Below are positions 21,009 through 54,859 of a stretch of DNA of 64,000 bases, one piece after another. Source of the stretch: Deltaproteobacteria bacterium (lineage in GTDB: Bacteria; Desulfobacterota; Binatia; HRBIN30; CADEER01); assembly GCA_029262455.1 (NCBI GenBank), contig JAJCZJ010000020.1:325078-389077 (forward strand), read 5' to 3'. Below the pieces are notes generated by a model, which saw only the letters and a program-made list of their open reading frames with translations, made no database searches and had not been told where the DNA came from. Both the position numbers and the translations under genes were made by a program. Each line of letters starts with the position of its first letter. The first letter of the stretch is position 1.

Positions 21009-21114
21009 GCGAAACGACCTTCCGCCGTCCAGCGCAGGATCGGCTCTTGCGAGCCGAACAATCGCCGAGGCCCCCGACGCACGTAACCCCTGGAAGCGTG
21101 AAATCATCCAGACT

Positions 21115-27472: not shown

Positions 27473-27497
27473 CTGCGGTTCAAATCCCTTGCTCGGC

Positions 27498-28907
27498 TCA
27501 AAACTGGAAGTAAATGAACTGCTGTTCCGTCGTGTACAGCGCAAGGACCGCCGCCAACATGGCACCGGCATAGATCGGCATCTCGAAGCGCTTCATTCCG
27601 AGTCCCGAGCTCCGGATCATTGCGGACCGCAAGTGAAGCGCCACGACCGGAGCGACGAAATACCAACCGAGTACTGTCAGATCGTCTAGGGAGCCAAGCC
27701 CACCACCAACCAACGAGACGATCCCCGCCACTGCATTGCCGACAACTCGCGTGCTCTGCGATAGATCCTCGGCGCGGAACAGGCCCATGCTCAGGATCCA
27801 CGTCACTTGCACGACGAGATACCAGCCCATCGAGGCCAGACGTCCCTGAGGTCCGCGCGAGAAACCCAAGGTCCGCTCGATCGCGAGCGCCAGCCCGTGC
27901 AACGCCCCCCACATCACGAAGGTCCAACTCGCACCATGCCAAAGTCCAGCGATCACCATGACCGCTGTGACGTTCACCAACGTGCGAGCTCGTCCGTGCC
28001 GGTTCCCCCCCAACGGGATGTACAGGTAGTCGCGGAACCAACGCGAGAGCGTGATGTGCCAACGACGCCAGAAATCGCTGAAGGTTGCCGCGATGTAGGG
28101 AGCGTCAAAATTGATCGGCAAGCGAAAGCCAAGCTGATAGGCAAGCCCGCGCGCAATGTCGGTATATCCCGCGAAGTCACAGAACAGCTGGCAGGAGAAA
28201 AAGGCGAGCATCGAGAGAGCCAGCAATCCGCCACCGGTTTCCGACGCGGCGCTCTCCCAATGCGTATCGACGACGCGTCCGAGGTTGTCAGCGACGACGA
28301 CCTTGAGAAACAGGCCGCGAACGATCAGGTAGGCGCCTTCGAAGAAGACTCTACCTCTGAAACCACGGTCGCGTTCCAACTGATAGAGAAAATCCCGCGC
28401 TCGAACGATCGGGCCCGCGACGAGCTGCGGAAAGAAGGCGATATAGCAGGCGAGTCGGACAAAGCTTTTCTCAGCCGGGATGTCGCCGCGGTAAACGTCG
28501 ATCGTGTAGCTCATCGACTGAAACGTATAGAACGAGATCCCAATCGGGAGGACAATCTCCGGATCCACAAACTGCCAAAGGCCCGAGGTCGCAATGTTCT
28601 GCGCCACAAAGCCACCGTACTTGAAGTAGCCGAGCAGCCCCAGATTGAGCAGCAGAGAAAGCGAAAGAATGCCCTTGCGCCGTGCCGTAGCCGACCCTGG
28701 CGCAGCGGCAATCACGCGGGCAGCGAAATAGTCGACACACGTGCTGAAGAGAATGAGGGCGAAGTACTTGGGGACGTGCCAGGAATAAAACGCCCAGCTC
28801 AGCAACAAGAGCCCGAAGACGTACGATCGGTTCGATCGGCGCGTCGCACCGCGCAGCGCCAACGCCAAAAAGAACAGGAACAAGAAAGAGACAGAAAGAA
28901 AGCTCAC
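27498..28907 (-). CDS. MBOAT family membrane-bound O-acyltransferase (AlgI/DltB/PatA-like)
   Basis: 469 aa, multi-TM. Conserved GISFYTFQ, FWRRWHITLSRWFRDYLYIPLGGNR and the His in WHGASW. Confidence 0.75.
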   Translation of the reverse strand: MSFLSVSFLFLFFLALALRGATRRSNRSYVFGLLLLSWAFYSWHVPKYFALILFSTCVDYFAARVIAAAPGSATARRKGILSLSLLLNLGLLGYFKYGGFVAQNIATSGLWQFVDPEIVLPIGISFYTFQSMSYTIDVYRGDIPAEKSFVRLACYIAFFPQLVAGPIVRARDFLYQLERDRGFRGRVFFEGAYLIVRGLFLKVVVADNLGRVVDTHWESAASETGGGLLALSMLAFFSCQLFCDFAGYTDIARGLAYQLGFRLPINFDAPYIAATFSDFWRRWHITLSRWFRDYLYIPLGGNRHGRARTLVNVTAVMVIAGLWHGASWTFVMWGALHGLALAIERTLGFSRGPQGRLASMGWYLVVQVTWILSMGLFRAEDLSQSTRVVGNAVAGIVSLVGGGLGSLDDLTVLGWYFVAPVVALHLRSAMIRSSGLGMKRFEMPIYAGAMLAAVLALYTTEQQFIYFQF

Positions 28908-29405: not shown

Positions 29406-30590
29406 ATGCCGAAAGAAGAGATCGAGGTCGAGGTTCGGGTTCGGCTGCGCGGAGGGCATTCCTACGATCTCACCCTATCATCCAACTCCGCTCTTCTGCG
29501 CGACTTGATCACGACGCTCGGCGGGTCGAGAAACTCGGTCCAGCCCCGACTCTTCCAGCTACCCCTCGACGGCGGCCAAACCTCCGCAACATTCGCCAGC
29601 GATCAGATATCAGCGATCGACACCCGTCCGCCACTCGACTGGAACACCATCACAACTGGTACGGAAGAGCGGTCCGCAAAAAGCCTCGGCGATGGTCCGC
29701 CTCTCGTCCTACGCGGCGCCCGCAACATTACACGCCAGCCATCCTACGAGGCAGCAGAGCGACGAGCGCGGCGGCTGATGGAACCGTTCGTGGCGCATCG
29801 ACAAGCCCGCCGTGCCGCACTGAAGAGCACTTGCGACGAGCTCGGCGGAAACACCTTCGTCGTCTCCCCCTTCAACCAAGGCTTCGTCCCGCTACTGCGC
29901 AACTGGGCCGCATCCTGTGATCGTTCCGGCATCGACTGCCGCGCCAGGACGGTACTGTTTCCGACCGACAACGGCGCCGACACTGCAGCACGCGAGCTCG
30001 GATTCGCAACCCTCTTCGACGGCGTCTCGTTTGACGGTGCCCCGCGCGACGCTATCAAAGTCTACGGGGACGCCCACTTTGCCGATTGTGTCTTCGCCAA
30101 GCTCGGCGCAGCAATCGACATGCTCGCTCTCGGCTACGACATCCTACTCCAGGATATGGATCTCGTCTGGTTCAAAGACCCGCTCCCCGGACTCAAAACT
30201 CGAGCGATGGCCGACGATCTGGACTTACAGTTCATGCGCGACATGAATCCGCGCTTCCAGCCGCTGTACTACAACTCCGGCTTCGTATTTATGCGCAACA
30301 ACGAATTCACCCGCCAAACCTGGAACACCATCTTCGACGCCTTTGCGGCGGTCGTGTTCTACCGCTCCGATCAAACCGTCGTGAACCAGGTCGTCGACTG
30401 CTACAAAGAGCGAGGATTGCGAGCCGCCCGTCTTCCAGATCGCTACGTAGATGGACAACTGCTGATCCGGGCCCAAACAAAACGCCGGCCTCTACCGCCA
30501 GATTCGATCGTGGCTCACGTCAACTGGACCGGAAACCTTGCCGAGAAGATCGCTCGGCTCAAAGCACTCGAACTGTGGTTCATCGACTGA
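29406..30590 (+). CDS. Novel ~80-aa N-terminal domain fused to a nucleotide-diphospho-sugar transferase (Nucleotid_trans/GT77-like) domain
   Basis: Start taken at MPKEEIEVEV (internal Met of ORF 29367..30590; weak RBS, start uncertain). C-terminal domain has LLQDMDLVWFKDP (the DxD...W motif of the Nucleotid_trans family). The N-terminal 80 aa are homologous to the N-terminus of the 36641 protein and to an internal segment of the 41978 protein. Confidence 0.5.
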   Translation: MPKEEIEVEVRVRLRGGHSYDLTLSSNSALLRDLITTLGGSRNSVQPRLFQLPLDGGQTSATFASDQISAIDTRPPLDWNTITTGTEERSAKSLGDGPPLVLRGARNITRQPSYEAAERRARRLMEPFVAHRQARRAALKSTCDELGGNTFVVSPFNQGFVPLLRNWAASCDRSGIDCRARTVLFPTDNGADTAARELGFATLFDGVSFDGAPRDAIKVYGDAHFADCVFAKLGAAIDMLALGYDILLQDMDLVWFKDPLPGLKTRAMADDLDLQFMRDMNPRFQPLYYNSGFVFMRNNEFTRQTWNTIFDAFAAVVFYRSDQTVVNQVVDCYKERGLRAARLPDRYVDGQLLIRAQTKRRPLPPDSIVAHVNWTGNLAEKIARLKALELWFID

Positions 30591-30673: not shown

Positions 30674-31942
30674 ATGCCGACATTTGTTGGCGACACCTTA
30701 CCGGAGGCGCTTCGAGCCTTGGACTGCTCAAAATCCATCGAAACTCGTGTCCTGCCGCGCGCAGTGGCCTTCGGTCGCTTGCTTCTCGCTATCGCGGCGG
30801 CACTTGCCGTGGTGACAGCTCCGCATAGGGCGCCGGCAGCCCAGATCAAGTTCACGGGATTTGCCCAAATCAACGGCGCCCCGAGCGGACCGTTCGCAGC
30901 ATTCACAATGAATGAGGTCGTCGATATGACGATCACGATCGACGAGACTACGGCCGATTCGAATGGCGCCGGCGGCGCCGGATCATACAGCGATCCGACC
31001 TCGACCGCATTGTTCGAGGGACAGACCTCCGTGCAGATGGTCACTTTCACCGGCTTCGGCTTCGAACTCCTCGATTCGACGCGACTCGACCCGGCCAACG
31101 GCCTCGTCTCATCGAGCCCGAGCGCGGCGTACGTCGAGGACTGGGACCTGACCAACCTGTCGCCGATTTCGAACGTCGACGACCTTCCGACCATCATTGC
31201 CGAGTTGCCCAATGTGAACATTGGAACCGTCAGCGCCAACTTTTCGATACAACAACTGCCCGCCGGCCCGACCACGCTCTTCCTCGGGCTCAAGCCAACC
31301 GTCACGGTCACCGACTTTTGCGGCAACGGCATCGTCGAGGCCCCGGAAGCGTGTGACGATCCGGTGTGTTGCAACCCGACCTGCACCGCAATCATAGCGA
31401 ACGGAACTGAATGCCGCGCTTCAGCCGGCGTCTGTGATGTGGCCGAGACCTGCAGCAACGGCGCATGCCCCGTCGACGGCTTCGCCTCGATCGGCACCGT
31501 GTGCAACCCGTCATTGGGCGTCTGTGATCCAGAGGAAGTGTGCAGCGGCTCGAGCGCGGAATGCCCGCCGGACACGCTGACTCAGTTCACCTGTGGCACG
31601 ATCTGCGGCGCCCCGGTAGACGAGTGCGACGTTGCCGACATCTGCGTCTCCGGCAACGTCGATTGCCCACCGATGGGGACAATGTGCACACCGACACCGG
31701 TTCCGACTCCGACGCCCACGCCCGTTCCCGAAAATGGGTCCGGGGACGGGGCTTGCAGCGACGGTCTCGACAACGACAACGACAACCTCATCGACTGCGA
31801 CGACCCTGATTGCCTCGACGTCGAGGCATGCGAAACCGTGCACGCACCGACGCTCTCGCCAGGTGGATTGACGATCACCGTGCTCATCCTCGCCCTCATC
31901 GGCTTGTTGGCGATGGGGCGGGCAGTGCTCCGGAAGAACTGA
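30674..31942 (+). CDS. Secreted Cys-rich repeat protein (CGNG...ECDD myxo-type/disintegrin-like repeats) with PT linker and C-terminal TM plus basic tail (possible sorting signal)
   Basis: Internal ATG of ORF 30086..31942; the true start may be a nearer GTG. Repeats CGNGIVEAPEACDD, CRASAGVCDVAETCSNGACPVDGF and CNPSLGVCDPEEVCSGSSAECPPD, a TPTPVPTPTPTPVP linker, and a tail APTLSPGGLTITVLILALIGLLAMGRAVLRKN. Confidence 0.5.
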   Translation: MPTFVGDTLPEALRALDCSKSIETRVLPRAVAFGRLLLAIAAALAVVTAPHRAPAAQIKFTGFAQINGAPSGPFAAFTMNEVVDMTITIDETTADSNGAGGAGSYSDPTSTALFEGQTSVQMVTFTGFGFELLDSTRLDPANGLVSSSPSAAYVEDWDLTNLSPISNVDDLPTIIAELPNVNIGTVSANFSIQQLPAGPTTLFLGLKPTVTVTDFCGNGIVEAPEACDDPVCCNPTCTAIIANGTECRASAGVCDVAETCSNGACPVDGFASIGTVCNPSLGVCDPEEVCSGSSAECPPDTLTQFTCGTICGAPVDECDVADICVSGNVDCPPMGTMCTPTPVPTPTPTPVPENGSGDGACSDGLDNDNDNLIDCDDPDCLDVEACETVHAPTLSPGGLTITVLILALIGLLAMGRAVLRKN

Positions 31943-31962: not shown

Positions 31963-32469
31963 ATGAGCGACTCCAAAAAGACAAGAAAGCAGCTAATCGA
32001 AGAACTCGAACAACTTCGTGGTCAAGTCGCGCAGCGACAGCAGTCGCAGTCGGACAACAGTGCACCGGCGCTTGCCGGCGACGTTTCACGACGCACCGCG
32101 CTAAAGGTCGCCTGGACCGCGCCGGTCATTTTGGCAATCCCTCTCCAGGCCGATCGCTCTGGCGCCCAACCTCCGGTCGGAACGGTGGCCCCGGGCTGTC
32201 CCACCATGACCCCGACCAACGCGGCCCCTCCGACTAGCTCGCCGACCTTGTTCCCAACGACCGCTGAGCCGACGATTTCGCCGACTCAACCAGTCCCGAC
32301 CACCAGGTTGCCAACGTCCAGTCCCACGAACGACCCGACATTGCGTCCGACCACCAGCCCGACGATCCCTGCCCCGACGGCTATGCCGACGGCGAGGCCG
32401 ACCACCAGCCCGACGATCCCTGCTCCGACGCTTTCCCCGACCCCTGGTTTCCCGACGCTTTCCCCGTAA
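31963..32469 (+). CDS. Small exported Pro/Thr/Ser-rich protein, paralog A (coiled-coil N-region plus SRRTALK Tat-like motif)
   Basis: Internal Met of ORF 31810..32469: MSDSKKTRKQLIEELEQLRGQVAQRQ...DVSRRTALKVAWTAPVILAIPLQ followed by PTTSPTIPAPT-type repeats. A paralogous N-terminus is found at 45413..45892 on the opposite strand. Confidence 0.5.
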   Translation: MSDSKKTRKQLIEELEQLRGQVAQRQQSQSDNSAPALAGDVSRRTALKVAWTAPVILAIPLQADRSGAQPPVGTVAPGCPTMTPTNAAPPTSSPTLFPTTAEPTISPTQPVPTTRLPTSSPTNDPTLRPTTSPTIPAPTAMPTARPTTSPTIPAPTLSPTPGFPTLSP

Positions 32470-33980: not shown

Positions 33981-34598
33981 GTGTTGTCAATGTTCGATAC
34001 GCCCGCACACCTCGAGCAGCAGACGCGCGAGCAACAGGCCGCAGCCCGGTACTGCGGGCTCGGCTTCAAAAAGGCCACGCTGCCCTCCGAGGTCTTGCAA
34101 CGGTTGCGCCAACACCTGGAAACGAACAGCCGCCGATTCCGCGCCGAGGAGCCCATCGACTACCTCGTCAACCCGGACCCCGGGAAGATTCCGGCCCTTT
34201 ATTTCGAGGACAAAGAATTCAACGCCACCCTAAGTCGCGAGCTACAAGGATTGCACGAAGAGTGGGCCGGAAGGAGTCTGACCGAGTCCGCCTGCTACGG
34301 CATCCGCGTCTATCAACGCGGCAGCTTTCTCTACAACCACGTCGACCACACCGACACACACATCATCAGCTCTTCGATCTGCGTCGACCACCGCCTCGAC
34401 AAGCCGTGGCCCCTCTACGTCGAGGATATCGACGGCAATCCCCACCAGATCGATCTCGACCCTGGCGACATACTGTTCTACGAGGGAGCCCGCCTGCGAC
34501 ACGGCCGTGCCTATCCACTCGAGGGTGACTACTACGCATCCATTTTCGTCCACTATCGACCCGCAAATCTCTGGTCTTCGCGGCTCGTTGGCACCTAG
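33981..34598 (+). CDS. 2OG-Fe(II) oxygenase superfamily protein (PhyH/P4H-like)
   Basis: YNHVDHTD (HxD) followed by a distal H in LRHGR and a jelly-roll-like spacing. Alternative ATG start at 33990. Confidence 0.55.
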   Translation: MLSMFDTPAHLEQQTREQQAAARYCGLGFKKATLPSEVLQRLRQHLETNSRRFRAEEPIDYLVNPDPGKIPALYFEDKEFNATLSRELQGLHEEWAGRSLTESACYGIRVYQRGSFLYNHVDHTDTHIISSSICVDHRLDKPWPLYVEDIDGNPHQIDLDPGDILFYEGARLRHGRAYPLEGDYYASIFVHYRPANLWSSRLVGT

Positions 34599-34640: not shown

Positions 34641-36644
34641 GTGAGACATCTACTCTATACAAACTACCAGTCCGGTCAGTCGGGTTTGAGCAACGGCATC
34701 ATGTCGATCGAGCTGGGCGTGGTCCTCGCGTTCCTGACGAATCGGTTTCTCCTGCTCGATGGCAACATCTCCCCGCCGGCCAATATCGTGTCGTACGGCG
34801 ATCGAGTCGACAACAGCCAGCCGAGCCGCGTCACCGACCTGATCGACCTACCGGTCGCCTGGAGTGAGCCAGGAAGCGTCGACGTGTCCAAGTTGCCGTT
34901 CCTCGAATTGAGCGACGACCATCTGGGGAGTGCCGCGTTCTATGTCCCCGGCACCGTCGACATCCGATCCGCCGACGCGGAAGCGTTCGCCAACGGCAGG
35001 ACAGTGTGGCTCAACGCTGGCGGCTCGCTCGACGAGATCCCGGTGCTGCGAGTGTCCGAGGATCACAGCAAAGACAATCTTCGATACAATCTCAACTACT
35101 ACTCGTACTTCTTCTACCTCGACGACGAAACGCGTCGCTCCGTCTACCGCATGCTCGAGCGGATGCAACCAAAGCAGGACCTAGGGGAGCTGGCGAAGCG
35201 CGTCGCCGGCGATCTCGGAGCATTCAACGCGGTGCACTTGCGACGCGGTGACTTCAAGGTGACCTATGGAGTCACCACCCTCGACCGTCAACCTTGGGAA
35301 GCAATCGAGGCGCTCGAGCATCACTTCAAACGCGACGACACTCTGGTCTTCGTGACCGACGAGCGCGACGACCCGTTCTTCGACGAGATCAAGAAGGTCT
35401 ATACGCATCACGTATTCATCGATCACCACATCCTCGACGACTACGAGAAGGACTTCGCCGCATTGCAGCACCGCGACAGCATCGCCTTGGCCTATCTTTC
35501 CCAGCTCGTGGCGGCCGAATCCGCCGACTTCATTGGCACCATGACCAGCACGTTCACCGCCATCATCCAGCGCTACCGCGGCAATCGCGGCAAGGCCGAG
35601 AGTTTCAAGTACCTTTGGAACGAGCTCCCGGACGACGGCGATCGTCTCGAACGCGGCCGTCATCCGGTTAGTGAGTGCGTCCCGATGGACCGCGGCATGA
35701 TGGTCGAAGAGTCGTCGGGTCCGTACTCATGGAATCGCTACAACAAGAGGATCGCCGCCAACTGGATGCGCGAATGGCCCGAAAGTTTTCTGACCCAAGA
35801 GAGCCTCGAAACCGGCAAATTGACGACCGGGGCCAGCCCCGTTGCCCGCCCCATCGTTCTGGTTCGTCCCGAAAGGACGAAAGTCGAGGTCGCGTTCGAC
35901 GGCTTGAGCATCATTCTAAACTCGCAAGTGCCTCGCGTTGCGACCAAGCTGAGCGAAGCCTTCGAATCACGCCAAGCTGCGAGTCCAGCGAACGTCATCG
36001 GGGAGTTCGAGGTTGCTGAAGAAGACGGCGACTTCCGTCTTCTGCAACGCGGCCAGGAAATCGCCACCGCAGCAAGCTACGAGGAGTTGGCGCGCACGTT
36101 AAAACTCCGCATGGTGCCGATCTTTGTCGGTGCGCGCCGCCGGCACGTGTGGCTGGAAGCTTTTTCCTTCCGTAGAGCAGGCCATGCGCTGGTTCTCGCC
36201 GGCGACATGGGTCCTCCATCGGACTGGCTGCCGGACGCCATGTGCTCGAACGGCTGGGAGCTGCTGTGGGACGAGATCGTCCCGATCCGCCTGGAAGACT
36301 GTACCGTCACACCGTTCGGCCGCACGACCTGGCCGAAGGGCGCAGCCCTGCGCATCGACCGTACGCCCTGTCGCGTCAGCGGCCTGATCGTCACCAGCCG
36401 ACAAGTCCAGCGCCGCGACACCTTGACCGTCTTGTCCCCAGCCACCGGGGTGGCGGAGTTGATCGGCCGCTGCGTCGACTTCCGCACCGACCGCAAGCGG
36501 GCGGTAGAACGCCTGTGCAAGCTGGTCGAGAAACGAACCGTAGGCAGACTGTCCTTCAGCCGCGCCGAGACCGCTGTCGATCTCCTCACGCGCCCCTTCC
36601 TCGACGCGGAGCGTGAGTCCGCCCACGGTACAAAGTCTGCATGA
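34641..36644 (+). CDS. Fucosyltransferase-superfamily GT-B (O-FucT-like) domain plus ~250-aa C-terminal domain of unknown function
   Basis: N-terminal QSGLSNGIMSIELGVVLAFLTNRFLLL resembles the GGLxNQ block of O-FucT/POFUT-like GTs. HLRRGDF matches the H-x-R-R-G-D motif shared by GT11/GT23/GT65/GT68. The C-terminal region has no recognised motif. Confidence 0.45.
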   Translation: MRHLLYTNYQSGQSGLSNGIMSIELGVVLAFLTNRFLLLDGNISPPANIVSYGDRVDNSQPSRVTDLIDLPVAWSEPGSVDVSKLPFLELSDDHLGSAAFYVPGTVDIRSADAEAFANGRTVWLNAGGSLDEIPVLRVSEDHSKDNLRYNLNYYSYFFYLDDETRRSVYRMLERMQPKQDLGELAKRVAGDLGAFNAVHLRRGDFKVTYGVTTLDRQPWEAIEALEHHFKRDDTLVFVTDERDDPFFDEIKKVYTHHVFIDHHILDDYEKDFAALQHRDSIALAYLSQLVAAESADFIGTMTSTFTAIIQRYRGNRGKAESFKYLWNELPDDGDRLERGRHPVSECVPMDRGMMVEESSGPYSWNRYNKRIAANWMREWPESFLTQESLETGKLTTGASPVARPIVLVRPERTKVEVAFDGLSIILNSQVPRVATKLSEAFESRQAASPANVIGEFEVAEEDGDFRLLQRGQEIATAASYEELARTLKLRMVPIFVGARRRHVWLEAFSFRRAGHALVLAGDMGPPSDWLPDAMCSNGWELLWDEIVPIRLEDCTVTPFGRTTWPKGAALRIDRTPCRVSGLIVTSRQVQRRDTLTVLSPATGVAELIGRCVDFRTDRKRAVERLCKLVEKRTVGRLSFSRAETAVDLLTRPFLDAERESAHGTKSA

Positions 36645-37630
36645 CAGACCAAGCAACCGCACCGCGCCAGATCGACATCCGCATCTCCACCATCGGCGGG
36701 CACGAGTATCGGTTGAATCTCCGCGAAGACGCCGTCCATTTGCGCGACCTCTTTACTCGATTCGTCAACCGACCGGCGACTGGGGCTGTCCGAGCTCCTG
36801 AATTCATCCAACTGCCCCTCGACGGAGGCAACGCTTCCTGCACGATCGCCGTCGATCAGATTGTGTCGATCGTCACCACGCCACCAGTCGTCATCGAAGT
36901 GCAACAACCCGCCGTCGAGCCAAACGTAATTCCAGATGTGCCGGCAGTGGTCGCGCCACCCCAGATCCGGCGCGCACACTACACGGTGATCGACGACTTT
37001 CTCACCGTCGATGAGCACCGAGACATGCTGGCGTTGGCATTGAGCGAGAAGGACAGCTTCGAACCCGGTACGGTGCAGGGTGAACCGAGTCCACACCGAC
37101 GAAACAGCGTCATCATGAACTTCGCAGACTCGGCGCACGGAACACTGCTGACAAGTCGTCTGCTCGTTTGGTTTCCATTGATCGCAAAGGCGCTGAAGGA
37201 ACCACTGTTTCCGCTCAAGACGGTCGAGTCGCAACTGACCGCCGCCAACGACGGAGACTACTATAAGCCTCACCTCGATACCGACGGGAAGACCCCCGAT
37301 TTCCGGGTCATCGCGTGCGTCTACTATTTCTTCCGCGAGCCAAAAGGGTTCACGGGCGGCGACCTACGCCTCTATGATTCCATCGAAACAGGTGGCGAAA
37401 TCTGTCAGGCGGATTCCTTCCAAGACATTCGGCCGGCAAGCAATCGCTTGGTCGCATTCACCTGCGAGACCTTCCACGAGCTGCTCGCGACTCGCTGCCC
37501 GTCCAAGGATATCGAAGACAGTCGTTTTGCGGTGACCGCGTGGTTTCACCGCAGCGGCGCACCGGACCCCGACGCCAAGTTCGGTTGGGGACATTATCGT
37601 TGCGGCGAAGTTCCGGAGGCACTGCGGTGA
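36641..37630 (+). CDS. Novel ~80-aa N-terminal domain fused to a prolyl-4-hydroxylase-like 2OG-Fe(II) oxygenase
   Basis: C-terminal domain has YYKPHLDTD (HxD), GGDLRLY, NRLVAF..ETFHEL (second His) and RFAVTAWF (2OG-binding Arg), which is the P4H pattern. The N-terminus IDIRISTIGGHEYRLNL...LRDL...QLPLDGGNASCTIAVDQIVSIVTTPP is paralogous to the N-terminus of the 29406 protein. ATGA overlap with the upstream gene. Confidence 0.6.
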   Translation: MTDQATAPRQIDIRISTIGGHEYRLNLREDAVHLRDLFTRFVNRPATGAVRAPEFIQLPLDGGNASCTIAVDQIVSIVTTPPVVIEVQQPAVEPNVIPDVPAVVAPPQIRRAHYTVIDDFLTVDEHRDMLALALSEKDSFEPGTVQGEPSPHRRNSVIMNFADSAHGTLLTSRLLVWFPLIAKALKEPLFPLKTVESQLTAANDGDYYKPHLDTDGKTPDFRVIACVYYFFREPKGFTGGDLRLYDSIETGGEICQADSFQDIRPASNRLVAFTCETFHELLATRCPSKDIEDSRFAVTAWFHRSGAPDPDAKFGWGHYRCGEVPEALR

Positions 37631-37802: not shown

Positions 37803-38930
37803 ATGATCTTCACGGTTTTCGTCGCACCGGTCGAACCAACGCAACAGTGGCGTGCCGATCTCCTCGAATACTCATGGCGACGCATCAAGCAGAGCGGCGA
37901 ACTGATCCGGCTGGCGCCAACCGCCCCCGGACGCGCACCAGGTAGCAGAGGGAGAGTCGGGAGAACCGTCAAAACGTTCGACTGGAACCCCCACCCGTAC
38001 ACCCAGGACGTGTACGCCGGCTATCAGACAACCGCCGGCGTACTCGAGTGGTTGTTCAACGAGCCGGCCGAAGGAACAGTCCTTTTGCTGGATTCGAGCT
38101 GCATCCTACGCCACCCGGTTACAGCAGAGGTCGAACCAGGCCACGTGCGCGGGTCGTCGTGGCCGGAGATCCCACTTGGCACGGACGGCCCATTCGGCCT
38201 GCATGATGATCTGAAGTTTCTCGAATCCTATTGCGTCAACCGCAAGCTCCCCCTCGCTCCCGTGCGGATGCCGATTTTGATCCACACGGCGGACCTGCGA
38301 AAAATCGCGGCGCGCTGGCTCGAGCTTACGGCGTTGATTCGATCCCATGCCGTAGGCGTTCACGGAAAATACCTTCATGCAGATCGCGTCGCCTACACCG
38401 TCGCCGCCGCCGAATACCGCATCCTCCACACCCTTGACGACCTCGGCACTACGACGTCGGATACCGGCAAAGACGTTCCGATCGTCGACTACAGCACACC
38501 GATCAAGTCCAAACAGGGAGAGATCGTCTGGGACCGAAAGGTCTATCGACCATGGGAGGCAGTCTACACCGAAAATGCGCGCGCAGGCGCAGGCAGAGAC
38601 GTACTCGGGATCCTGAACGAGATGGTGACGCGCCGCGAATCGGGAGCCGAGCTTGCGGCAACACGTCCACAGCGGTGCTACGGGGTGCGGGAAGCACGAA
38701 TTCTCGACGACATTCATCTCGAAGTACCTGGGTGTGCCGACTTGATGTCGCTGAATCAATCCGCGGCTGCCATCTGGGAGCTGTGCAACGGCGAGAACAC
38801 ACTCGCCGAGATCGTCAGCGAGCTCGAGAGACAATTCGACGCGTCACGCGAAACCCTCATGACATCCGTCGAATCGACGGCGAGGGATTTGGAAAGCTCA
38901 GGTGCCATCGAGCTGGAGGAGCTGTTCTGA
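37803..38930 (+). CDS. Unassigned N-terminal (possibly glycosyltransferase) domain with C-terminal PqqD-like (RRE) domain
   Basis: C-terminal 83 aa ILDDIHLEVPGCADLMSLNQSAAAIWELCNGENTLAEIVSELERQFDASRETLMTSVESTARDLESSGAIELEE match the PqqD pattern. N-terminal ~290 aa begin MIFTVFVAPVEPTQQWRADLLEYSWRRIKQSG. Confidence 0.5.
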   Translation: MIFTVFVAPVEPTQQWRADLLEYSWRRIKQSGELIRLAPTAPGRAPGSRGRVGRTVKTFDWNPHPYTQDVYAGYQTTAGVLEWLFNEPAEGTVLLLDSSCILRHPVTAEVEPGHVRGSSWPEIPLGTDGPFGLHDDLKFLESYCVNRKLPLAPVRMPILIHTADLRKIAARWLELTALIRSHAVGVHGKYLHADRVAYTVAAAEYRILHTLDDLGTTTSDTGKDVPIVDYSTPIKSKQGEIVWDRKVYRPWEAVYTENARAGAGRDVLGILNEMVTRRESGAELAATRPQRCYGVREARILDDIHLEVPGCADLMSLNQSAAAIWELCNGENTLAEIVSELERQFDASRETLMTSVESTARDLESSGAIELEELF

Positions 38931-40156
38931 TGGCATCCAAAGCAAAACCAAGCGCCAAAAAGTCCGTGCCGACCACAAAAACAAAGCACGCAGCAAAACG
39001 TGCCAAAGCCTCGGCCAAGAAAACAGCCAAAGCGCCGCCCGGAAAAGCCACGACAGCACGGGCGAAGAAGACCACCAAGACTCCGGCCTCCAAGAGCCCC
39101 AAAACCCGGACCCAAAGGACCCGGGCCCAAAAGCCCCGGGCCCGCAAAGCCGCGCTCAAAGTATCGCAAACGGTGTCGCCCAAAGGATCGCAAACGACTT
39201 CGAAGACGGAGCGAACGACCCCATCGCCTCGCGCAAAGTCGCGGCAGGCCACAAAACAACCCCAGATCTTCGTGTCGATCGCCTCCTACCGCGACCAGTT
39301 TCTTCACTTCACCATCGAGTCGGTGCTCAAACAGGCGACGTACCCAGAACGGTTGACCTTCGGCCTCTGCTGGCAAGCCGACGACACCGAGCAACTCGAT
39401 CAATACCTGCACGATCCGCGTTTCCGCATTCGCAAGTACCCGTACTACGCGAGCCTCGGCTACGGTTGGGCAAGAGCCGAGATCCAAAAACTATACGCCG
39501 GCGAAGAGTACCATCTACTGATCGATTCTCACACGTATCTCGCCAAGGGGTGGGACGAGAATCTGATCGCGCAACTCGAGAGCAAGCCGGGCGAGAAGCC
39601 GCTACTGACGACCAGCTCACCCCCTTTCACCTTCGACAATGACGGCAACGTCGTAATCCCGTGGCAAGGGACCGAACACGACGGCGTGCCGCTGATGAAG
39701 TGCGCACGAATCCAACCGGCAGGGTGGGTCGACATCCAGATGTCCAATGAGCGCAAGTCCACCAAACATCAAACCACCGGATTGGTGTGCTGTAACTTTG
39801 TCTTCACGCACGGGGCTTGGATCCGCGAAGTGCCCGAGGATCCGGCGATGATCAACGCCGGCCACGAGTCAGCCCTTTCGGTTCGTACCTTCACCCACGG
39901 ATACGACATCTACCTGCCCGACGAAATTCAAATCTGGCACCTCGACTACAACAACTACCCGAACGGTGAGCGCAACAAGGTATGGGAAGCAAAGTCCGAC
40001 AGTTGGCAGTCTGAGGGCACCGAGATCATGCTGCGGCGGCTGCAAGCGCTGTTCTACAACCGCGGCGACCGCGCCTCGCTCGGCCGCTACGGACTCGGTC
40101 GATCCCGCACCGTAGCCGACTGGGCGGAGATCACCGGACTCGACCTCAGTGACTGA
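38930..40156 (+). CDS. GT60-like (Glyco_transf_GlcNAc / Skp1-Hyp and mucin-Thr GlcNAc-transferase family) enzyme with ~110-aa Lys/Ala/Thr-rich histone-H1-like N-terminal tail
   Basis: ATG overlaps the upstream stop (TGATG). Tail MASKAKPSAKKSVPTTKTKHAAKRAKASAKKTAKAPPGK... Catalytic region starts IFVSIASYRDQFLHFTIESVLKQATYPERLTFGLCWQADD, which I recognise as the N-terminal signature of the GT60 family from memory (needs HMM confirmation). Paralogous to 46893..47900. Confidence 0.45.
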   Translation: MASKAKPSAKKSVPTTKTKHAAKRAKASAKKTAKAPPGKATTARAKKTTKTPASKSPKTRTQRTRAQKPRARKAALKVSQTVSPKGSQTTSKTERTTPSPRAKSRQATKQPQIFVSIASYRDQFLHFTIESVLKQATYPERLTFGLCWQADDTEQLDQYLHDPRFRIRKYPYYASLGYGWARAEIQKLYAGEEYHLLIDSHTYLAKGWDENLIAQLESKPGEKPLLTTSSPPFTFDNDGNVVIPWQGTEHDGVPLMKCARIQPAGWVDIQMSNERKSTKHQTTGLVCCNFVFTHGAWIREVPEDPAMINAGHESALSVRTFTHGYDIYLPDEIQIWHLDYNNYPNGERNKVWEAKSDSWQSEGTEIMLRRLQALFYNRGDRASLGRYGLGRSRTVADWAEITGLDLSD

Positions 40157-41942
40157 CGTCGACTCCGCACTACTGCCAATTCCCCAACCCGAGTGGCGTG
40201 CTTCTTTATCCGGCGACGGCGCGGCAGTTGATGTCCTGATTTTAAGCAAGGACCGCGCCTGCCAACTCGACGGACTGCTGCGCACGATGCGCGCGTTCCT
40301 GACCATCCCACACCGGAAATACGTACTGTACAAGACGTCTAATTTGGCGTTCGAGCGCGGCTACGACATGCTCCGCCGGTGGAATCCCGAGGTCGAGTTC
40401 ATCGACGAGGCGCAAACGTTTCGACAATGCTACCTCGACCTCGTGGCAAGGATCGCCGCCGGGCCTGGTCGCTACTGGATGCCGGTGATGGACGACATGA
40501 TCTTCACTCGCACGTTCACCGCACAGCCACTCATCGACCTCCTCGACACAGACGAGGACGTGCTGGCGATCTCTCTGCGCCTCGGCGAGAACATTACCTA
40601 TTGCTACACCCGAAACGCTCCAACCACACCTCCGGACTTCAGCAACGGACACCGTTGGGAATGGAGAACAGCCAGCCCAGGCTACTGGAACTATCCAATG
40701 TCCGTCGACGCCAACATCTACCGCACGGCGGAAATGGCCGAATACATCCCGACCCTCCAATTCGGCAAGGCTGAAGTCATCGAGGCACGCATGGCCGGGG
40801 TGCCCTTGAACCGCCCCCATATGCTGTGTGAACCGACCCCCAGCGTACTCAATCTCGCGATCAACCGCGTTCAACACACCTTCAAGAATCGGCACGGCAC
40901 AATCACGCCAGAAGCCCTGAACGGCGCTTTCCTCGCGGGTTTCGCGATGGATGTGCGCCCGTTGCTGGGTCGAACCTTCAACGCCTGTCACGTCGAGGTC
41001 GAGCTGTCCTTGGTCCCCGATGCGCGCGAGCGCCCCGGCGCAACGCCCCTCTCTTCGACCGGCTGGAAACCACAGCGAAACGGCGCCGTCGTCGTGACCG
41101 AGAGCCATGCTGTCGTGACGCTCAAGAGGAACGGAACGAAGCTCAAACTCAATCAGAGCGCCGAAGAGATCTGGAAACTGTGCGACGGAACACGAACGCC
41201 CGAGGACATCCAAAACGAGCTCGCGCAACATTTTGACGCAACCCCGCGCCAGCTTCACAGCGGCGTACGAAGCGCCCTGGCGAATTTCATCAATCACGGC
41301 CTTCTCCGTCAGGAACGCCCGGAAGGCGCATACCGCCGCATCGACCTGCGCCAGATTCCCTGCTTCGTGATCAATTGCGAAGCCGATGCTGAGAAGGACA
41401 CGTTGATGAAGCGTCAGCTCGCTGAGCTCGGGATACCGTACGAACGTGTACCCGGGATCGCCGCAAGCCCGGATTGGGTCGGCGTCGCGCTGTCGCACCT
41501 CAAAGTGCTTCGCCTGACCCGCTCGACGACACCCTTCCTGGTGCTCGAGGACGATTGCTTGTTCAACGACCGCTTCCAACCAGTGTGGCAAGTACCGGTC
41601 GAGGCCGACGCCCTGTATCTCGGCGTTTCCGAGTTCGGCCTCGAGACCCCCGGTCACTTCAGCTGGGGCCGCCGGCGCAAGAACCAATGGAGACCCTACG
41701 ACCGGTCCTTCCTCCGCATTTTCAACATGCTCGCACGCCATGCGGTCGTGTACCTTTCCAACGACTACTGCGAGCAAGTCATCCAATCGCAAATCGAAGC
41801 ACTGACGAATCGAAGTTTGCCGTACCCTGGGGACATCGGCTGCGCGATGCTGCAAGCATCGCACGTCGTCCTGACCCCGAACGAACCGATCTGCCGGCAA
41901 ACCGGTCGTGACTCGACCGTGCGTCCGTTGCCGGAGCTCTGA
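40149..41942 (+). CDS. Three-domain enzyme: GT-A (GT2-like) domain - PqqD-like (RRE) domain - GT25 family glycosyltransferase domain
   Basis: GTG start overlapping the upstream stop. N-terminal VDVLILSKDRACQLDGLLRTM and a DDM motif (GT-A). Residues ~312-388 VVTLKRNGTKLKLNQSAEEIWKLCDGTRTPEDIQNELAQHFDATPRQLHSGVRSALANFINHGLL (PqqD-like). C-terminal CFVINCEADAEKDTLMKRQLAELGIPYERVPGI matches the GT25 N-terminal motif (LPS GT25 / collagen Hyl-galactosyltransferase family). Confidence 0.5.
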   Translation: MTDVDSALLPIPQPEWRASLSGDGAAVDVLILSKDRACQLDGLLRTMRAFLTIPHRKYVLYKTSNLAFERGYDMLRRWNPEVEFIDEAQTFRQCYLDLVARIAAGPGRYWMPVMDDMIFTRTFTAQPLIDLLDTDEDVLAISLRLGENITYCYTRNAPTTPPDFSNGHRWEWRTASPGYWNYPMSVDANIYRTAEMAEYIPTLQFGKAEVIEARMAGVPLNRPHMLCEPTPSVLNLAINRVQHTFKNRHGTITPEALNGAFLAGFAMDVRPLLGRTFNACHVEVELSLVPDARERPGATPLSSTGWKPQRNGAVVVTESHAVVTLKRNGTKLKLNQSAEEIWKLCDGTRTPEDIQNELAQHFDATPRQLHSGVRSALANFINHGLLRQERPEGAYRRIDLRQIPCFVINCEADAEKDTLMKRQLAELGIPYERVPGIAASPDWVGVALSHLKVLRLTRSTTPFLVLEDDCLFNDRFQPVWQVPVEADALYLGVSEFGLETPGHFSWGRRRKNQWRPYDRSFLRIFNMLARHAVVYLSNDYCEQVIQSQIEALTNRSLPYPGDIGCAMLQASHVVLTPNEPICRQTGRDSTVRPLPEL

Positions 41943-41977: not shown

Positions 41978-44900
41978 GTGAAAAAGGGCACAATCCACGA
42001 TCTCTTCTCCCGCACCGCTTGCGTCGTGTCCGACAGGCACCGATTCATCTATTTGACGGCGCAAAACGCCACGTCTTCCCTGAAGGCCGAGCTGTCGAAC
42101 GAGCACTGCGGCGGCGTTGTCCTCGCCCGCGCACAGGTGGCTGATAAACTCTGGAACCAATACTTTACGTTCGCCTTCCTGCGCGACCCGCTGACGCGCT
42201 TTCTCTCCGCCTATCAGGAAGTGTCTCTGCACATGGAGCGTGACAAACTCGAACCGCGCCCTTTCGGCCGGATGCCCGACGGCCTCGATCGCTTTCAGGC
42301 ATTTCTCGCGGACGTCGAGCAGAACGGTCCGTGGAACGAGCACATTGCACTCCAGCTAGCCTTCGTCGAGCGCCGAAGAATCGACTTTTGGGGGCTCGTC
42401 GAAACGCTGCAAGACGACTTCCAACAAATCTACACCCGGCTGGGATTGGGGACCTGTCCCGTTCTGCCAAAACGCCGCTCTCGCAGCGGCCGTGAGGAAA
42501 AGGACGGCATCTCGCGCTTCGCCTTCCATCCGGAGGACCTCGATGCGACGACAATTGAGCGCATCTACGACCTCTACCGTGAGGACGTCTTGCTGATTCG
42601 AGCGGTTCGCCCCGACGCACCTGAAATGCAGCCGCACTCAACCCGTGCCGCACCGCCCCCCGGAATGGTGCAGGTGGCGATCGCCCTGGCCAACGGCGGC
42701 GAATACTCCCTCGAACTTCCGCCCGGCCAACCAGAGCTGGGCGCTCTGCAAGCTGTGGTATCACCACAACAATCCGATGGACGTTTTCTCGGCCCGCAAG
42801 TTCTGCAGGTTCCACTGCGTGGTGGCAATTCCGCGCTGACGTTTTCCACGCAGCACCTCGTTCGTCTCGAGCTACGCCCCCCCGACGCCCGAGAACTGCG
42901 CCGAATCGAGGCGCCGGCCACCGGCACGGGCAACTCCGGAGTGAATCTAATAAACGTCGGGAACAAGCGGCCGCCAACCGAGGACCCATCGAGCAATATC
43001 GACGAGGCGCATCTCGGTGGCTACATTCGTGCGGCCAATACACCGATTCTCCACAGCGCCGCAGGCCCACACGGGGACCGGGGAACCTGGAATCCGCTGC
43101 TGTGGCGTTGGGCAATCGAAGATCTCGACGTGCGATCAGTGATCGATATCGGATGCGGCGAGGGACACGCCGCCGGATTTTTCTCCGACGGCGGGTGTGA
43201 AGTGCTCGCGCTCGATGGCAGCCTTCAAGCGCGCTATTCCAGCGTTGTTCCAGATCGCCACGTCGTACACGACTTCGTCGAGGGACCTTTCGTCCCAGAG
43301 AAAAGCTTCGACATGGCCTGGACCTGCGAGTTCGTCGAACACGTCGAGGCGCGTTTTCTCCACAATTTCCTGGCTACGATCGCATCGAGCCGCAAGTACG
43401 TGATGATGACGTTCGCCAGCCCGACACAAACAGGCTGGCATCACGTCAATTGCCAAGAACAGGGTTACTGGGTCGATCAGTTGGGACGCCTCGGGTTTCG
43501 CCTGGACGACGATCTAACCGAGAGAGGCCGAGCCTTGGCTCACTCTCATTTTCGCGAACGTGGCCTGGTCTTCGTCCGGCACCATCGAAAAGGCGAGTCA
43601 TCGAAGTCCACAGAACCGTCGCTGCGCGCGACTGCCGAGAGTCACTGTCTCGACCCGCTGCCGGTCCAATCCATGCAGGTCGCACAGCGCGAGAGCGATG
43701 CCTTCTACCTGTTTGTCGACATCTTCGTGCATCCGACCGCACCGAGAATCGTGGCGATCTCACCACCCTATGGCGAAGACTGGAATCCTAACGTTGTCGG
43801 CATCGACTACGATGCCGTCGACCTTGTATTCGGTGACATACGCGTCCGCGGCCGCTGCCTGCGGCACCGTCTCGACTCCTGGGAGCCTTGCATGCTTCTC
43901 GAGTTCGAGGACGAAGACCTAACAGAGCGCATTCGGGCCAACGACGAGATCAACGTCACGATCGAGGCCGGCTCGCATTCGTCGTCCTTCGTCCTGACGA
44001 CCCGCCCAGCGCCAGCCTACGATGTCGCAATGAGCCTCGTCGTACGCAACGAAAACCGCTGGATCCGCACGTTTCTCGACTACTACCTCGACTGCGTCAA
44101 AGCCGACCACGTCTTCATCTACGACAACGGAACGTCGGAACAAGACCAGCTGCTTTCCATTCTTCACCCGTACCGAGAGCGCGGGCAAGTGACGTACATC
44201 CCGTGGGATTTTCGCTGGCGCAACCGCATCGACCGCAAGATGATCGGCCAACCGACACAGGAGGCTCACTCCCTTGCAAGATTCGCAAACACCGGGTGGA
44301 TCGGCTTTCTCGACATCGACGAGTTCCTGCGCTTGCCGCACAGCACCCTGCCACAATTTCTCGCTCGCTTCGCGTCCGCGGAGGTCGACGGACTCTCGTT
44401 CGGTATCCGGTGGTTTTCTTACGAGGGCCCGCTTGCACTCGATGAGATTACGAGTGTGCCACTGCAATTCCTCCACTCGCGCCGCAATGAGCTCGGCCGA
44501 AAACGGCAGAAGTTCTTCGTCAAAGGCGGCGGCTCGAAGTTTCTTCGCTTGCATTGGCTCGAAGACGGAGGTCGCGAACTGCCCATCGACGACACCGAGA
44601 TCTACTTTCACCACTACGATCAACGTCCCGGCCGTTTCGAAGAAGGAAAGCAAATCGGAGGAGCGCGCGACGAATACATGCTGCGCTTCGCCGACCAGCT
44701 CTCGCGCCCCGAGCGGCACAGAGCCCCTCTAACCGAGAGAGGATGGATCACCCACATCAACTCTTCGATCGAACGCGCCGAACGCGACACCTCCAAACTC
44801 ACCCCGGAAGTCCTCGCCGTCGACGGCATGTGCGGGCGCTACACCCGTCACTTCTACAACAACCTCTGCAGCTTCGGAGGATGCCGCTACCTCGAGATCG

Positions 44901-45385
44901 GCAGCTATCACGGGGCCAGCACCTGCGCGGCAATCTTCGGCAACGACGTATCCGCCGTGTGCATCGACAATTGGACACAGTTTCACGGCAAGCGAAGCCG
45001 CTTCGAGGATGCCCTACGACGCTTCCGAGGAGATCGCTCGGTCCGAGTCATCGAGCAAAACTGCTTCGAAGTAGACGCCTCAAGCCTCGGCCCATTCGAC
45101 ATCTATCTCTACGATGGCGACCACAGCCAGCAGAACCAGTACCGAGCCTTGCAGCACTTCGTTCAGACGCTGGCCAAGCTCGCCGTAGTCGTCATCGACG
45201 ACTGGAATCGTCGGCATATCCGTCGGGGGACACAGGACGCGATTCGGGACCTCGAACTCGATGTAATCTTCGACCGAGAGATCCTACTGCCAACCGACCA
45301 GACGGCGGATGAAAACCGTGACGCTGGAGCGCGAACTTGGTGGAACGGACTCTACATCATGCTCGTTCGCAGTAGAACGCAGTAG
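41978..45385 (+). CDS. 1135-aa five-domain enzyme: sulfotransferase (Sulfotransfer_2-like) - novel ~80-aa domain - class I SAM methyltransferase - GT-A glycosyltransferase (DIDEFL) - TylF/CmcI-like O-methyltransferase
   Basis: GTG start. Five domains are visible:
- (1) 5'-PSB-like RFIYLTAQNATSSLKAEL and 3'-PB FLRDPLTRFLSAY, carbohydrate sulfotransferase motifs.
- (2) MVQVAIALANGGEYSLELP...LQVPLRGGNSALTFSTQHLVRLELRPP, homologous to the N-termini of the 29406 and 36641 proteins.
- (3) RSVIDIGCGEGHAAGFFSDGGCEVLALD, methyltransferase motif I.
- (4) HVFIYDNGTSEQ...GWIGFLDIDEFL, GT-A DxD.
- (5) FDIYLYDGDHS, Methyltransf_24 (TylF/MycF-like) motif. Confidence 0.55.
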   Translation: MKKGTIHDLFSRTACVVSDRHRFIYLTAQNATSSLKAELSNEHCGGVVLARAQVADKLWNQYFTFAFLRDPLTRFLSAYQEVSLHMERDKLEPRPFGRMPDGLDRFQAFLADVEQNGPWNEHIALQLAFVERRRIDFWGLVETLQDDFQQIYTRLGLGTCPVLPKRRSRSGREEKDGISRFAFHPEDLDATTIERIYDLYREDVLLIRAVRPDAPEMQPHSTRAAPPPGMVQVAIALANGGEYSLELPPGQPELGALQAVVSPQQSDGRFLGPQVLQVPLRGGNSALTFSTQHLVRLELRPPDARELRRIEAPATGTGNSGVNLINVGNKRPPTEDPSSNIDEAHLGGYIRAANTPILHSAAGPHGDRGTWNPLLWRWAIEDLDVRSVIDIGCGEGHAAGFFSDGGCEVLALDGSLQARYSSVVPDRHVVHDFVEGPFVPEKSFDMAWTCEFVEHVEARFLHNFLATIASSRKYVMMTFASPTQTGWHHVNCQEQGYWVDQLGRLGFRLDDDLTERGRALAHSHFRERGLVFVRHHRKGESSKSTEPSLRATAESHCLDPLPVQSMQVAQRESDAFYLFVDIFVHPTAPRIVAISPPYGEDWNPNVVGIDYDAVDLVFGDIRVRGRCLRHRLDSWEPCMLLEFEDEDLTERIRANDEINVTIEAGSHSSSFVLTTRPAPAYDVAMSLVVRNENRWIRTFLDYYLDCVKADHVFIYDNGTSEQDQLLSILHPYRERGQVTYIPWDFRWRNRIDRKMIGQPTQEAHSLARFANTGWIGFLDIDEFLRLPHSTLPQFLARFASAEVDGLSFGIRWFSYEGPLALDEITSVPLQFLHSRRNELGRKRQKFFVKGGGSKFLRLHWLEDGGRELPIDDTEIYFHHYDQRPGRFEEGKQIGGARDEYMLRFADQLSRPERHRAPLTERGWITHINSSIERAERDTSKLTPEVLAVDGMCGRYTRHFYNNLCSFGGCRYLEIGSYHGASTCAAIFGNDVSAVCIDNWTQFHGKRSRFEDALRRFRGDRSVRVIEQNCFEVDASSLGPFDIYLYDGDHSQQNQYRALQHFVQTLAKLAVVVIDDWNRRHIRRGTQDAIRDLELDVIFDREILLPTDQTADENRDAGARTWWNGLYIMLVRSRTQ

Positions 45386-46744: not shown

Positions 46745-46759
46745 GGGGATTCTATGTGT

Positions 46760-46878
46760 GTGATTGGTGACTGGTGATTCGTGACTGGTGACTGGTGATT
46801 CGTGACTGGTGACTGGTGATTCGTGACTGGTGACTGGTGATTCGTGACTGGTGACTGGTGACTGGTGACTGGTGATTG
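46760..46878. repeat. 17 tandem copies of a heptanucleotide (GTGACTG/GTGATTC; 21-nt super-unit x4) between the GT60-like gene and the sulfotransferase
   Basis: Read directly: gtgattg gtgactg gtgattc gtgactg gtgactg gtgattc ... gtgactg gtgattg. On the minus strand this is CAGTCAC/GAATCAC. In the reading frame of ORF 46049..46900 it encodes the heptad TSHESPV five or more times. Confidence 0.8.
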
Positions 46879-46892
46879 GTTGGGCAAAAGTT

Positions 46893-47900: not shown

Positions 47901-48115
47901 GATTCATACTCTTGCCGAAGCCAAGGTCGCACCGCAAGTGACAGAGACACCCGTCTATAGCCGCTCCACCGCTTGAATCTTGGTCGAGGACTCGGGATTC
48001 CAAACAACCTCCTCATGGCTCCAAGATCGGGATCTTCGCAGACAATCGACCCGCAAGGTTGCCCGAGCCACTGCGAGCGCGGCCGCAAACCCACCCGATC
48101 CACTCGACCCCCGGA

Positions 48116-54837: not shown

Positions 54838-54859
54838 GGAATCCCCCGTGGTCTTCGCC

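Follow-up and report, generated by a model that had tools for sequence, protein, structure and literature searches.

The alpha subunit of collagen prolyl 4-hydroxylase (P4H) carries a separate N-terminal peptide-substrate-binding domain, an all-helical (TPR-like) module of ~100 residues that binds the proline-rich substrate and aids the processing of repetitive substrates. PqqD, a recognition element for peptides that ribosomes make and that are modified after translation (RiPP recognition element, RRE), has a winged-helix fold in which a three-stranded sheet is followed by three helices. Glycosylation of hydroxyproline (Hyp) is described for Skp1 in Dictyostelium and Toxoplasma, with PhyA, Gnt1/GT60 and AgtA/GT77, and for plant Hyp-O-arabinosylation, as on extensin, with P4H, hydroxyproline O-arabinosyltransferase (HPAT) and GT77 arabinosyltransferases. 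Here we analysed a 64,000-nucleotide stretch of DNA from a Deltaproteobacteria bacterium (GenBank assembly GCA_029262455.1, contig JAJCZJ010000020.1, positions 325,078 to 389,077; hereafter the window), in which three enzymes of one gene cassette share a segment that we name domain D. D is a new domain family, probably of the known recruitment-module kind, and we tentatively read it as a module that docks a substrate protein for the enzyme that follows it.

The three segments are copies of one homologous, autonomous domain of ~75–80 residues. A first-pass annotation of the window, made from the sequence alone, had proposed a single homologous segment of ~75 residues on three otherwise unrelated enzymes, and had named a shuffling test by which the alignment might fail. 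The alignment survives that test. All three of the peptides it had listed were found letter-exact in the window translations, the segment in copy A corresponding to residues 6–76 of the protein encoded by 29406..30590(+), within the span 29406–29650. Local BLOSUM62 (Smith–Waterman) scores were 134 for A–B, 85 for A–C and 86 for B–C, against a shuffled-sequence mean of ~23 ± 4.5 (z = 25.7, 13.2 and 14.5, respectively), and the observed score was reached by 0 of 2000 shuffles for every pair of copies. Run against the window translated in all six frames, hidden Markov models (HMMs) built from the three copies and from an 89-sequence family alignment each recovered exactly these three sites (E 1e-21 to 1e-40), and neither found a further diverged copy there, the next-best match having E > 0.1. 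The host types assigned earlier — a glycosyltransferase (GT), a hydroxylase and a sulfotransferase–methyltransferase multi-enzyme — were likewise confirmed by domain scans (Table 1).

PF03407 (Nucleotide-diphospho-sugar transferase) places the host of copy A in GT77, scoring 56.8 bits where the cutoff is 22 (E 3.9e-15), and the architecture of this host recurs in a related locus (L091) alongside the same accessory genes. The catalytic half of host B is a predicted PHD/PhyA-type prolyl 4-hydroxylase: a profile of its family matched PDB sequences of the prolyl 4-hydroxylase 6t8m (E 8e-15), of EGLN1 (E ~1e-6) and of 4iw3, and in its 2-oxoglutarate (2OG)-Fe(II) oxygenase domain the residues H211, D213, H279 and R295, including the H-x-D...H iron triad, are invariant in the family alignment. 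All PDB matches begin after profile position 108, so these structural relatives lack D. The ATG of host B overlaps the stop codon of the 667-residue gene upstream (ATGA), pointing to translational coupling. Orthologues of host C, multi-enzymes as well, also carry D in four further loci (L006, L007, L008 and L091).

We found no name for D in any collection searched. In Pfam-A 2025 and NCBIfam r20, the curated libraries compared, the three copies had zero matches even at E ≤ 10; the 89 family members, scanned singly against Pfam at the same threshold, gave nothing consistent, any one family being touched by at most two members; and the best match of the family profile to PDB sequences had E 0.7. 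Public names of full-length members ('2OG-Fe(II) oxygenase', 'Tpa1-like proline 4-hydroxylase', 'SM-20-related protein') cover the oxygenase half only, and the searchable literature yielded no description of the domain or of the cassette. Exhaustive HMMER search over 1.84 billion protein cluster representatives, a profile search of the kind the first-pass annotation had called for, returned 120 matches at E ≤ 1e-3 (21 at E ≤ 1e-10), of which 109 contain full-length D and 11 are repeat-protein artefacts. The earlier statement that the segment belongs to no recognised named domain is therefore upheld by the Pfam, NCBIfam and PDB-sequence searches; as a novel domain of this cluster, D is indeed unannotated but is not specific to the locus.

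Not every search detected these relatives. A word-indexed protein search with the 3-copy or the 89-sequence alignment of D gave no match, although the collection contains family members, and a genome scan with the 3-copy alignment gave 98 pattern matches and zero confirmed relatives. With full-length D-oxygenase proteins as queries, at least 571 confirmed relatives were found when one genome was scanned for each species. Among the matches listed, those nearest to the window came from metagenome-assembled genomes of Gammaproteobacteria (Halieaceae, Congregibacter, Lysobacterales) at 44–48% identity, and the remainder of the best 80 of the at least 571 were mostly from filamentous cyanobacteria (Nostoc, Microcoleus, Fischerella, Calothrix, Planktothrix). 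D stands at the oxygenase N-terminus in 86 of the 86 loci examined, and in all 86 window copy B is orthologous to the D of the D-P4H proteins. The primary home of D is the N-terminus of a predicted PHD-type prolyl 4-hydroxylase.

This hydroxylase is the usual partner of D. Among the 109 full-length hits, Pfam identified 2OG-FeII_Oxy_3 in 42, methyltransferases in 7, PqqD in 6, GT92 and O-FucT in 3 each, GT77, Sulfotransfer_2 and FUT8-like domains in 2 each, and JmjC/cupin, GT25 and DUF5672 in 1 each. The domain directly after D is P4H in 47 hits, Methyltransf_23 in 7, GT77 in 2 and GT92 in 1; in one further hit D is followed by the end of an HPAT-type gene that encodes PqqD, and the hits outside these direct-neighbour classes are truncated or unknown. 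Throughout the classified enzymes, whose catalytic domains have at least four unrelated folds, D lies directly N-terminal to the catalytic domain. Its linker to the oxygenase measures 11–57 residues (median 21) with 18% proline. Wherever D is internal, it forms a unit with the enzyme downstream of it, and this unit has been fused behind another protein of the cassette, as in O-FucT-like + D + P4H, PqqD-GT + D + P4H and PqqD-GT25-...-D-MT-GT92-MT (MT, methyltransferase), and the position of D is kept in fused multi-enzymes that already hold PqqD (P0102, P0113). Outside the window, copy A is closest to the D of P0041, likewise a D-GT77 protein, and copy C to the D of P0015, a D-MT-GT92-MT protein, at 56% identity. 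The subtypes of D are thus orthologous by enzyme type, which argues that the D fusions are old and maintained and not recent local duplications.

D also occurs by itself, in complete genes of 106 residues in L089 and L090 (1644–1964) that adjoin a phage-integrase-family gene, on contigs of 2.3–2.5 kb without an oxygenase domain; this stand-alone type comprises three distinct 50%-identity clusters (P0051, P0058, P0065). The 34 hits of at most 150 residues might have suggested that stand-alone D is common; we rejected this, as most are truncated metagenome fragments whose tails start the oxygenase 'IDNFL' motif. A complete 196-residue D+PqqD gene (P0053) is present in two independent metagenomes (L004 838–1428 and L005 361–951). 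It was considered as a dedicated two-module chaperone or adaptor and set aside, since one half matches the D encoded by a D-P4H gene and the other the PqqD-coding end of HPAT-PqqD, the gene beside it. Two D-oxygenase genes stand in tandem in a Microcoleaceae locus (L041 10022–11301), and some cyanobacterial D-P4H linkers (L034 and L048) consist of short repeats of the type '(E/P)-(I/V)-P', 'PAEVPPEVSPEIPSEIPPEIPAIP' being one example; they may be simple spacers or hydroxylase pseudo-substrates.

Structure prediction describes a mainly beta domain with one helix. AlphaFold gave a model with predicted local distance difference test (pLDDT) score 88.9 and predicted template modelling (pTM) score 0.77 from the 89-sequence alignment, and the same topology from the three sequences (pLDDT 77), with predicted elements b1 7–14, b2 19–25, a1 29–39, b3 49–54, b4 59–64 and b5 68–74. 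Taken together with the complete stand-alone genes and the Pro-rich linker, this confident model predicts that D folds independently. In protein A numbering, the conserved positions comprise a hydrophobic core (V10, L14, L24, L31, L34, F63, L68), turns (G16-G17(-H18), D27-S28-P29, G57(-R58), P75-P76), the polar residues Q51, S65 and T73, and P53; T73 is conserved at 81%, P75 at 91%, P76 at 73% and His18 at 48%. Foldseek comparison, a check proposed in the first-pass annotation, found no significant neighbour among solved structures at E ≤ 0.001. A beta-grasp-like fold had been suggested there; the order b1-b2-a1-b3-b4-b5 is compatible with the b-b-a-b-b core of that fold (as compared by element order), but matches to protein L/G, EapH2 and superantigens were non-significant (TM ≤ 0.38, E > 0.7), ubiquitin, ThiS and MoaD were absent from the top structural-match lists, and the suggestion is not supported. 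Pfam SM-ATX was touched marginally by 2 of the 89 members (E 0.015).

The genomic setting of D differs between lineages. In Proteobacteria, Myxococcota and metagenome loci (the window, L001, L003, L006–L011, L072, L078, L087, L088 and L091) it belongs to a cassette of fixed order: a small precursor, a ~450-residue PqqD-glycosyltransferase, a ~210-residue protein, a ~680-residue O-FucT/HprK-like protein, the D-P4H, an HPAT-family protein with PqqD, and a GT60 N-acetylglucosamine (GlcNAc) transferase, with a multi-enzyme, a GT77, sulfotransferases and an epimerase as frequent additions. Core cassettes have just one copy of D, that of the P4H (L087, L009, L010, L072, L078); the window-type cassette adds D on GT77 and on the multi-enzyme. 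The cassette enzymes bear either PqqD (the 454-residue GT, HPAT and the GT25-like protein) or D (P4H, GT77 and MT-GT92). In nine loci (L001, L003, L006, L007, L009, L010, L011, L072, L078) the gene directly upstream of the one for PqqD encodes a homologue of the window precursor. The precursors share the twin-arginine-like motif [ST]-[RK]-R-x-x-[LV]...W-x-A-P-V-[IV], often followed by an A-x-A-like site, and then Pro/Thr-rich repeats; most also have an N-terminal amphipathic helix, absent in L072. In cyanobacteria the D-P4H gene is found alone, surrounded by housekeeping genes (purH, hflX, glutaredoxin (grx), gshB, ftsZ) and by ankyrin and DUF4079 genes.

We propose that D is a non-catalytic substrate-docking or recruitment module, and give this reading a probability of roughly 0.4; both the binding and the precursor as ligand are what we infer. 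In the cassette, the prolines of the repeat protein would be hydroxylated and the protein O-glycosylated. D would bind a segment of this substrate and, through the flexible Pro-rich tether, hold the repetitive protein near the catalytic domain that follows; in the lineage of the window it also stands ahead of two accessory tailoring enzymes, GT77 and MT-GT92-MT. It would thereby work in parallel with the structurally unrelated PqqD-type recognition elements on other cassette enzymes, and one conserved precursor is the expected substrate of PqqD- and D-bearing enzymes alike. The proposal is plausible on anatomical grounds, D always lying directly N-terminal to a catalytic domain, joined to it by a flexible Pro-rich tether, and having a distribution complementary to that of PqqD.

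Several observations weigh against substrate docking. The conserved positions of D are mostly hydrophobic core and Gly/Pro turns, and an exposed conserved aromatic cluster typical of proline-rich-peptide binders is not evident. In the cyanobacterial D-P4H loci neither a PqqD gene nor a precursor-like open reading frame (ORF) was found within ±10 kb, and since the hydroxylase is alone there, any substrate bound by D cannot be the cassette precursor everywhere. The notion of two leader motifs for two binding domains is weakened by L072, where the precursor is without the N-terminal helix and both domain types are present. Finally, P0053, the sole protein in which D is joined directly to PqqD, is no dedicated adaptor: its gene looks like an in-frame deletion derivative of two adjacent genes that has lost both catalytic domains.

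The main rival casts D as a self-association module: the lone hydroxylase of cyanobacteria would dimerize through it, and in the cassette the D-tagged P4H, GT77 and MT-GT92 would assemble and reach the precursor via their PqqD-bearing partners. We regard this as unlikely, while granting that it accounts for the cyanobacterial lone D-P4H without a special substrate and that fusions between D and PqqD proteins (P0102, P0113 and O-FucT-like + D + P4H) indicate physical cooperation of the enzymes. Core cassettes carry one D each, however, so the ancestral role cannot have been hetero-assembly, that is, the joining of different D-tagged enzymes; D persists in multi-enzymes, whose parts are covalently fused and should have no need of a docking domain; and it always precedes a catalytic domain, as opposed to the free termini usual for dedicated docking domains. 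A regulatory or structural accessory role, in which D contacts the catalytic domain and not the substrate (sensing a small ligand, or serving as a lid or as an intramolecular chaperone), would fit the strict adjacency of the two and the existence of stand-alone D genes, a situation known for some regulatory subunits. It is nonetheless improbable: the partners have four unrelated folds (double-stranded beta-helix oxygenase, Rossmann-fold methyltransferase, GT-A-type GT77 and GT92), for which a common intramolecular interface is unlikely, the linker, variable in length and Pro-rich, points to loose tethering and not to a packed interface, and no conserved polar pocket residues stand out, with His18 conserved in fewer than half of the sequences.

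A carrier or modifier of the beta-grasp (ubiquitin-like) kind, itself modified, for example at the conserved C-terminal T-x-P-P, is very improbable, although the b-b-a-b-b(-b) order resembles a beta-grasp and T73, P75 and P76 are well conserved beside a prolyl hydroxylase. The structural hits are all non-significant, conserved prolines are to be expected structurally at a domain boundary, which is where these lie, and the cyanobacterial D-P4H has no accompanying transferases; as a lone hydroxylase of this sort is the dominant context of D, the carrier role is the least likely of the functions offered in the first-pass annotation. That D is a highly diverged PqqD-type RRE we discount almost entirely. 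Its size (~80 residues), its fusion to tailoring enzymes and the three PqqD domains already present in the cluster would have suited that idea, but neither PF05402 nor the NCBIfam PqqD models matched any of the three copies at E ≤ 10, and none of the 89 members matched PqqD in the Pfam scan, the genuine PqqD domains of the cluster scoring 1e-11 to 1e-14; hhalign against six PqqD domains of the cassette type gave a probability of 0.4% (E 0.17, 17 columns); and the predicted b-b-a-b-b-b topology is unlike the winged helix with its three strands and three helices. Substrate docking is the reading that we carry forward.

If D does recruit substrate, the RRE paradigm for the enzymatic modification of ribosomal products would gain a second type of adaptor, and the domain would offer a handle on the substrates of a large bacterial prolyl hydroxylase family. 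It would also mark a conserved bacterial P4H + HPAT + GT60 + GT77 cassette, an enzyme set otherwise familiar from Hyp glycosylation of the plant cell wall and of protist Skp1, and, if true, bacterial Hyp O-glycosylation of a mucin/extensin-like protein becomes directly testable. Hundreds of bacteria with sequenced genomes, some of them from cyanobacterial genera that are well studied, have conserved D, yet it has no name, no solved structure and no assigned role. A bolder extension, possible but doubtful, is that D represents a new, structurally distinct class of recognition element that guides the PHD-type hydroxylase and the late tailoring enzymes onto the ribosomally made Pro/Thr-repeat protein, as one half of a two-adaptor (PqqD + D) system in an undescribed bacterial pathway. 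In the cytoplasm, this pathway would make plant- and protist-like Hyp O-glycans on a protein whose leader is twin-arginine-like.

Table 1. Copies of domain D, their host genes and the other cassette genes of the window (positions in the window).
Feature	Coordinates	Strand	Details
Domain D copy A	29421..29633	+	N-terminus of D-GT77 protein; HMM envelope ~29409-29648
Domain D copy B	36671..36886	+	Residues 11-82, N-terminus of D-prolyl-hydroxylase 36641..37630; envelope ~36644-36910
Domain D copy C	42668..42883	+	Residues 231-302 of 41978..45385, between sulfotransferase and first methyltransferase; envelope ~42641-42889
Host gene A: D + linker + GT77-type glycosyltransferase	29406..30590	+	PF03407, residues 181-385
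Host gene B: D + Pro-rich linker + predicted PHD/PhyA-type prolyl 4-hydroxylase	36641..37630	+	2OG-FeII_Oxy_3 (PF13640), residues 198-303, E 3.9e-15
Host gene C	41978..45385	+	Sulfotransfer_2 (10-206) - D - Methyltransf_23 (382-473) - GT92 (688-880) - Methyltransf_24 (972-1076)
Putative precursor (substrate)	31963..32469	+	N-terminal amphipathic helix, twin-arginine-like SRRTALKVAWTAPVILAIPLQ, then ~100 residues of Pro/Thr/Ser repeats
PqqD (RRE) + putative glycosyltransferase, 454 residues	32612..33976	+	PqqD E 7.6e-14; position kept in related loci
205-residue core cassette protein	33981..34598	+	No family match; 'NHVDHTD' + distal 'RLRHGR'; 'fam 25' across cassettes
O-FucT-like + HprK-related protein, 667 residues	34641..36644	+	O-FucT weak; HprK_rel_A (TIGR04352) weak, E 1.3e-6, C-terminal part
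HPAT-family + C-terminal PqqD, 375 residues	37803..38930	+	PqqD match; HPAT via orthologue
GT60-type GlcNAc transferase (PF11397)	38930..40156	+	~130-residue N-terminal extension, extremely basic, low-complexity, Lys/Thr/Ala/Ser-rich
597-residue protein, internal PqqD + weak GT25 match	40149..41942	+	Fused to host gene C elsewhere (P0113, L006)

Further features of the cassette genes bear on how they may act. The window precursor gene has a GAGG ~10 nt 5′ of its ATG, and its leader resembles a Tat signal extended at the N-terminus; speculatively, this would be in keeping with export following cytoplasmic modification. Halieaceae-type precursors (L009 5474–5974, L010 5605–6003, L011 5234–5689) end in a conserved C-terminal 'VIPVEIS-x-FDI[SK]' that the window precursor is without and that could be a sorting or recognition tag. 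Judged by its putative iron and 2OG motifs, the 205-residue protein could be a second small dioxygenase, in which case the cassette would have two oxygenases, either of them a candidate for making Hyp. The 667-residue O-FucT/HprK-like protein is fused to D-P4H elsewhere (P0005, P0011, P0029, P0048), and HprK-related kinase A (TIGR04352) is also seen in other PqqD-containing peptide-modification cassettes. The HPAT-family assignment of the 375-residue protein comes from its full-length orthologue in L003 (7274–8419; 36% identity, E 3e-83), whose match to Pfam HPAT (4e-15) passes the threshold; the corresponding match of the window protein has just E 0.13.

Around the cassette, the interval between the D-GT77 gene and the precursor (30674–31942, +) encodes a predicted secreted protein with a signal-peptide-like N-terminus, Cys-rich repeats, a weak Pfam Disintegrin match (E 1.2e-7, below cutoff), a 'PTPVPTPTPTPVP' linker and a C-terminal hydrophobic anchor; its product could be a second substrate of the Pro/Thr-linker type. 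Adjoining the D-GT77 gene are a gene for an MBOAT-family membrane O-acyltransferase (27498–28907, −) and, next to it, an 876-residue ORF without a family match (24941–27571, −). Just upstream of the cassette (16733–24116, +), three consecutive YfhO-family membrane proteins flank a GT2 gene (20929–21939), by family assignment the gene set of an extracytoplasmic, lipid-carrier-dependent glycosylation system, which could add sugars after export. Directly after the multi-enzyme, on the opposite strand (46049–49114, −), lie genes for another sulfotransferase and another GT60 (PF11397, E 1e-43), together with one for an NAD-dependent epimerase/dehydratase; these accessory genes recur in L006, L087 and L091. 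Multi-haem cytochrome c and cytochrome b genes further downstream (53227–55906, −) appear unrelated to the cassette.

Among described systems, Rv3208A/TB9.4 (PDB 7rur) and the Sm/Hfq/SH3-like small beta-barrels compare with D at marginal scores. D has its helix between b2 and b3, whereas the Sm helix is N-terminal, and Rv3208A has no known function, so it allows no functional inference for D. The peptide-substrate-binding domain of collagen P4H resembles D in being a separate domain N-terminal to the P4H catalytic domain; D, however, is mainly beta with one helix, and homology between the two was not detected. The Skp1 and plant Hyp pathways provide the closest context, not the closest domain. 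The window combines a predicted PHD/PhyA-type P4H with HPAT-family, GT60 and GT77 enzymes, as those pathways do in part, but the system is bacterial, its enzymes carry PqqD or D modules, and the protein that it is predicted to modify has Pro/Thr repeats and a twin-arginine-like leader.

The PqqD-type RRE (PF05402) comes nearest in kind. Like D, it is a non-catalytic module of ~80 residues fused to, or encoded beside, tailoring enzymes, and it sits in the same cassette, on the enzymes without D, where we propose a parallel recruiting role for D. The two differ in that D has no sequence or profile similarity to PqqD and another predicted fold, and in that the main home of D is a lone prolyl hydroxylase outside RiPP-like clusters. 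In every respect that could be tested D falls outside the PqqD/RRE family, and functionally the RRE is the nearest concept to it.

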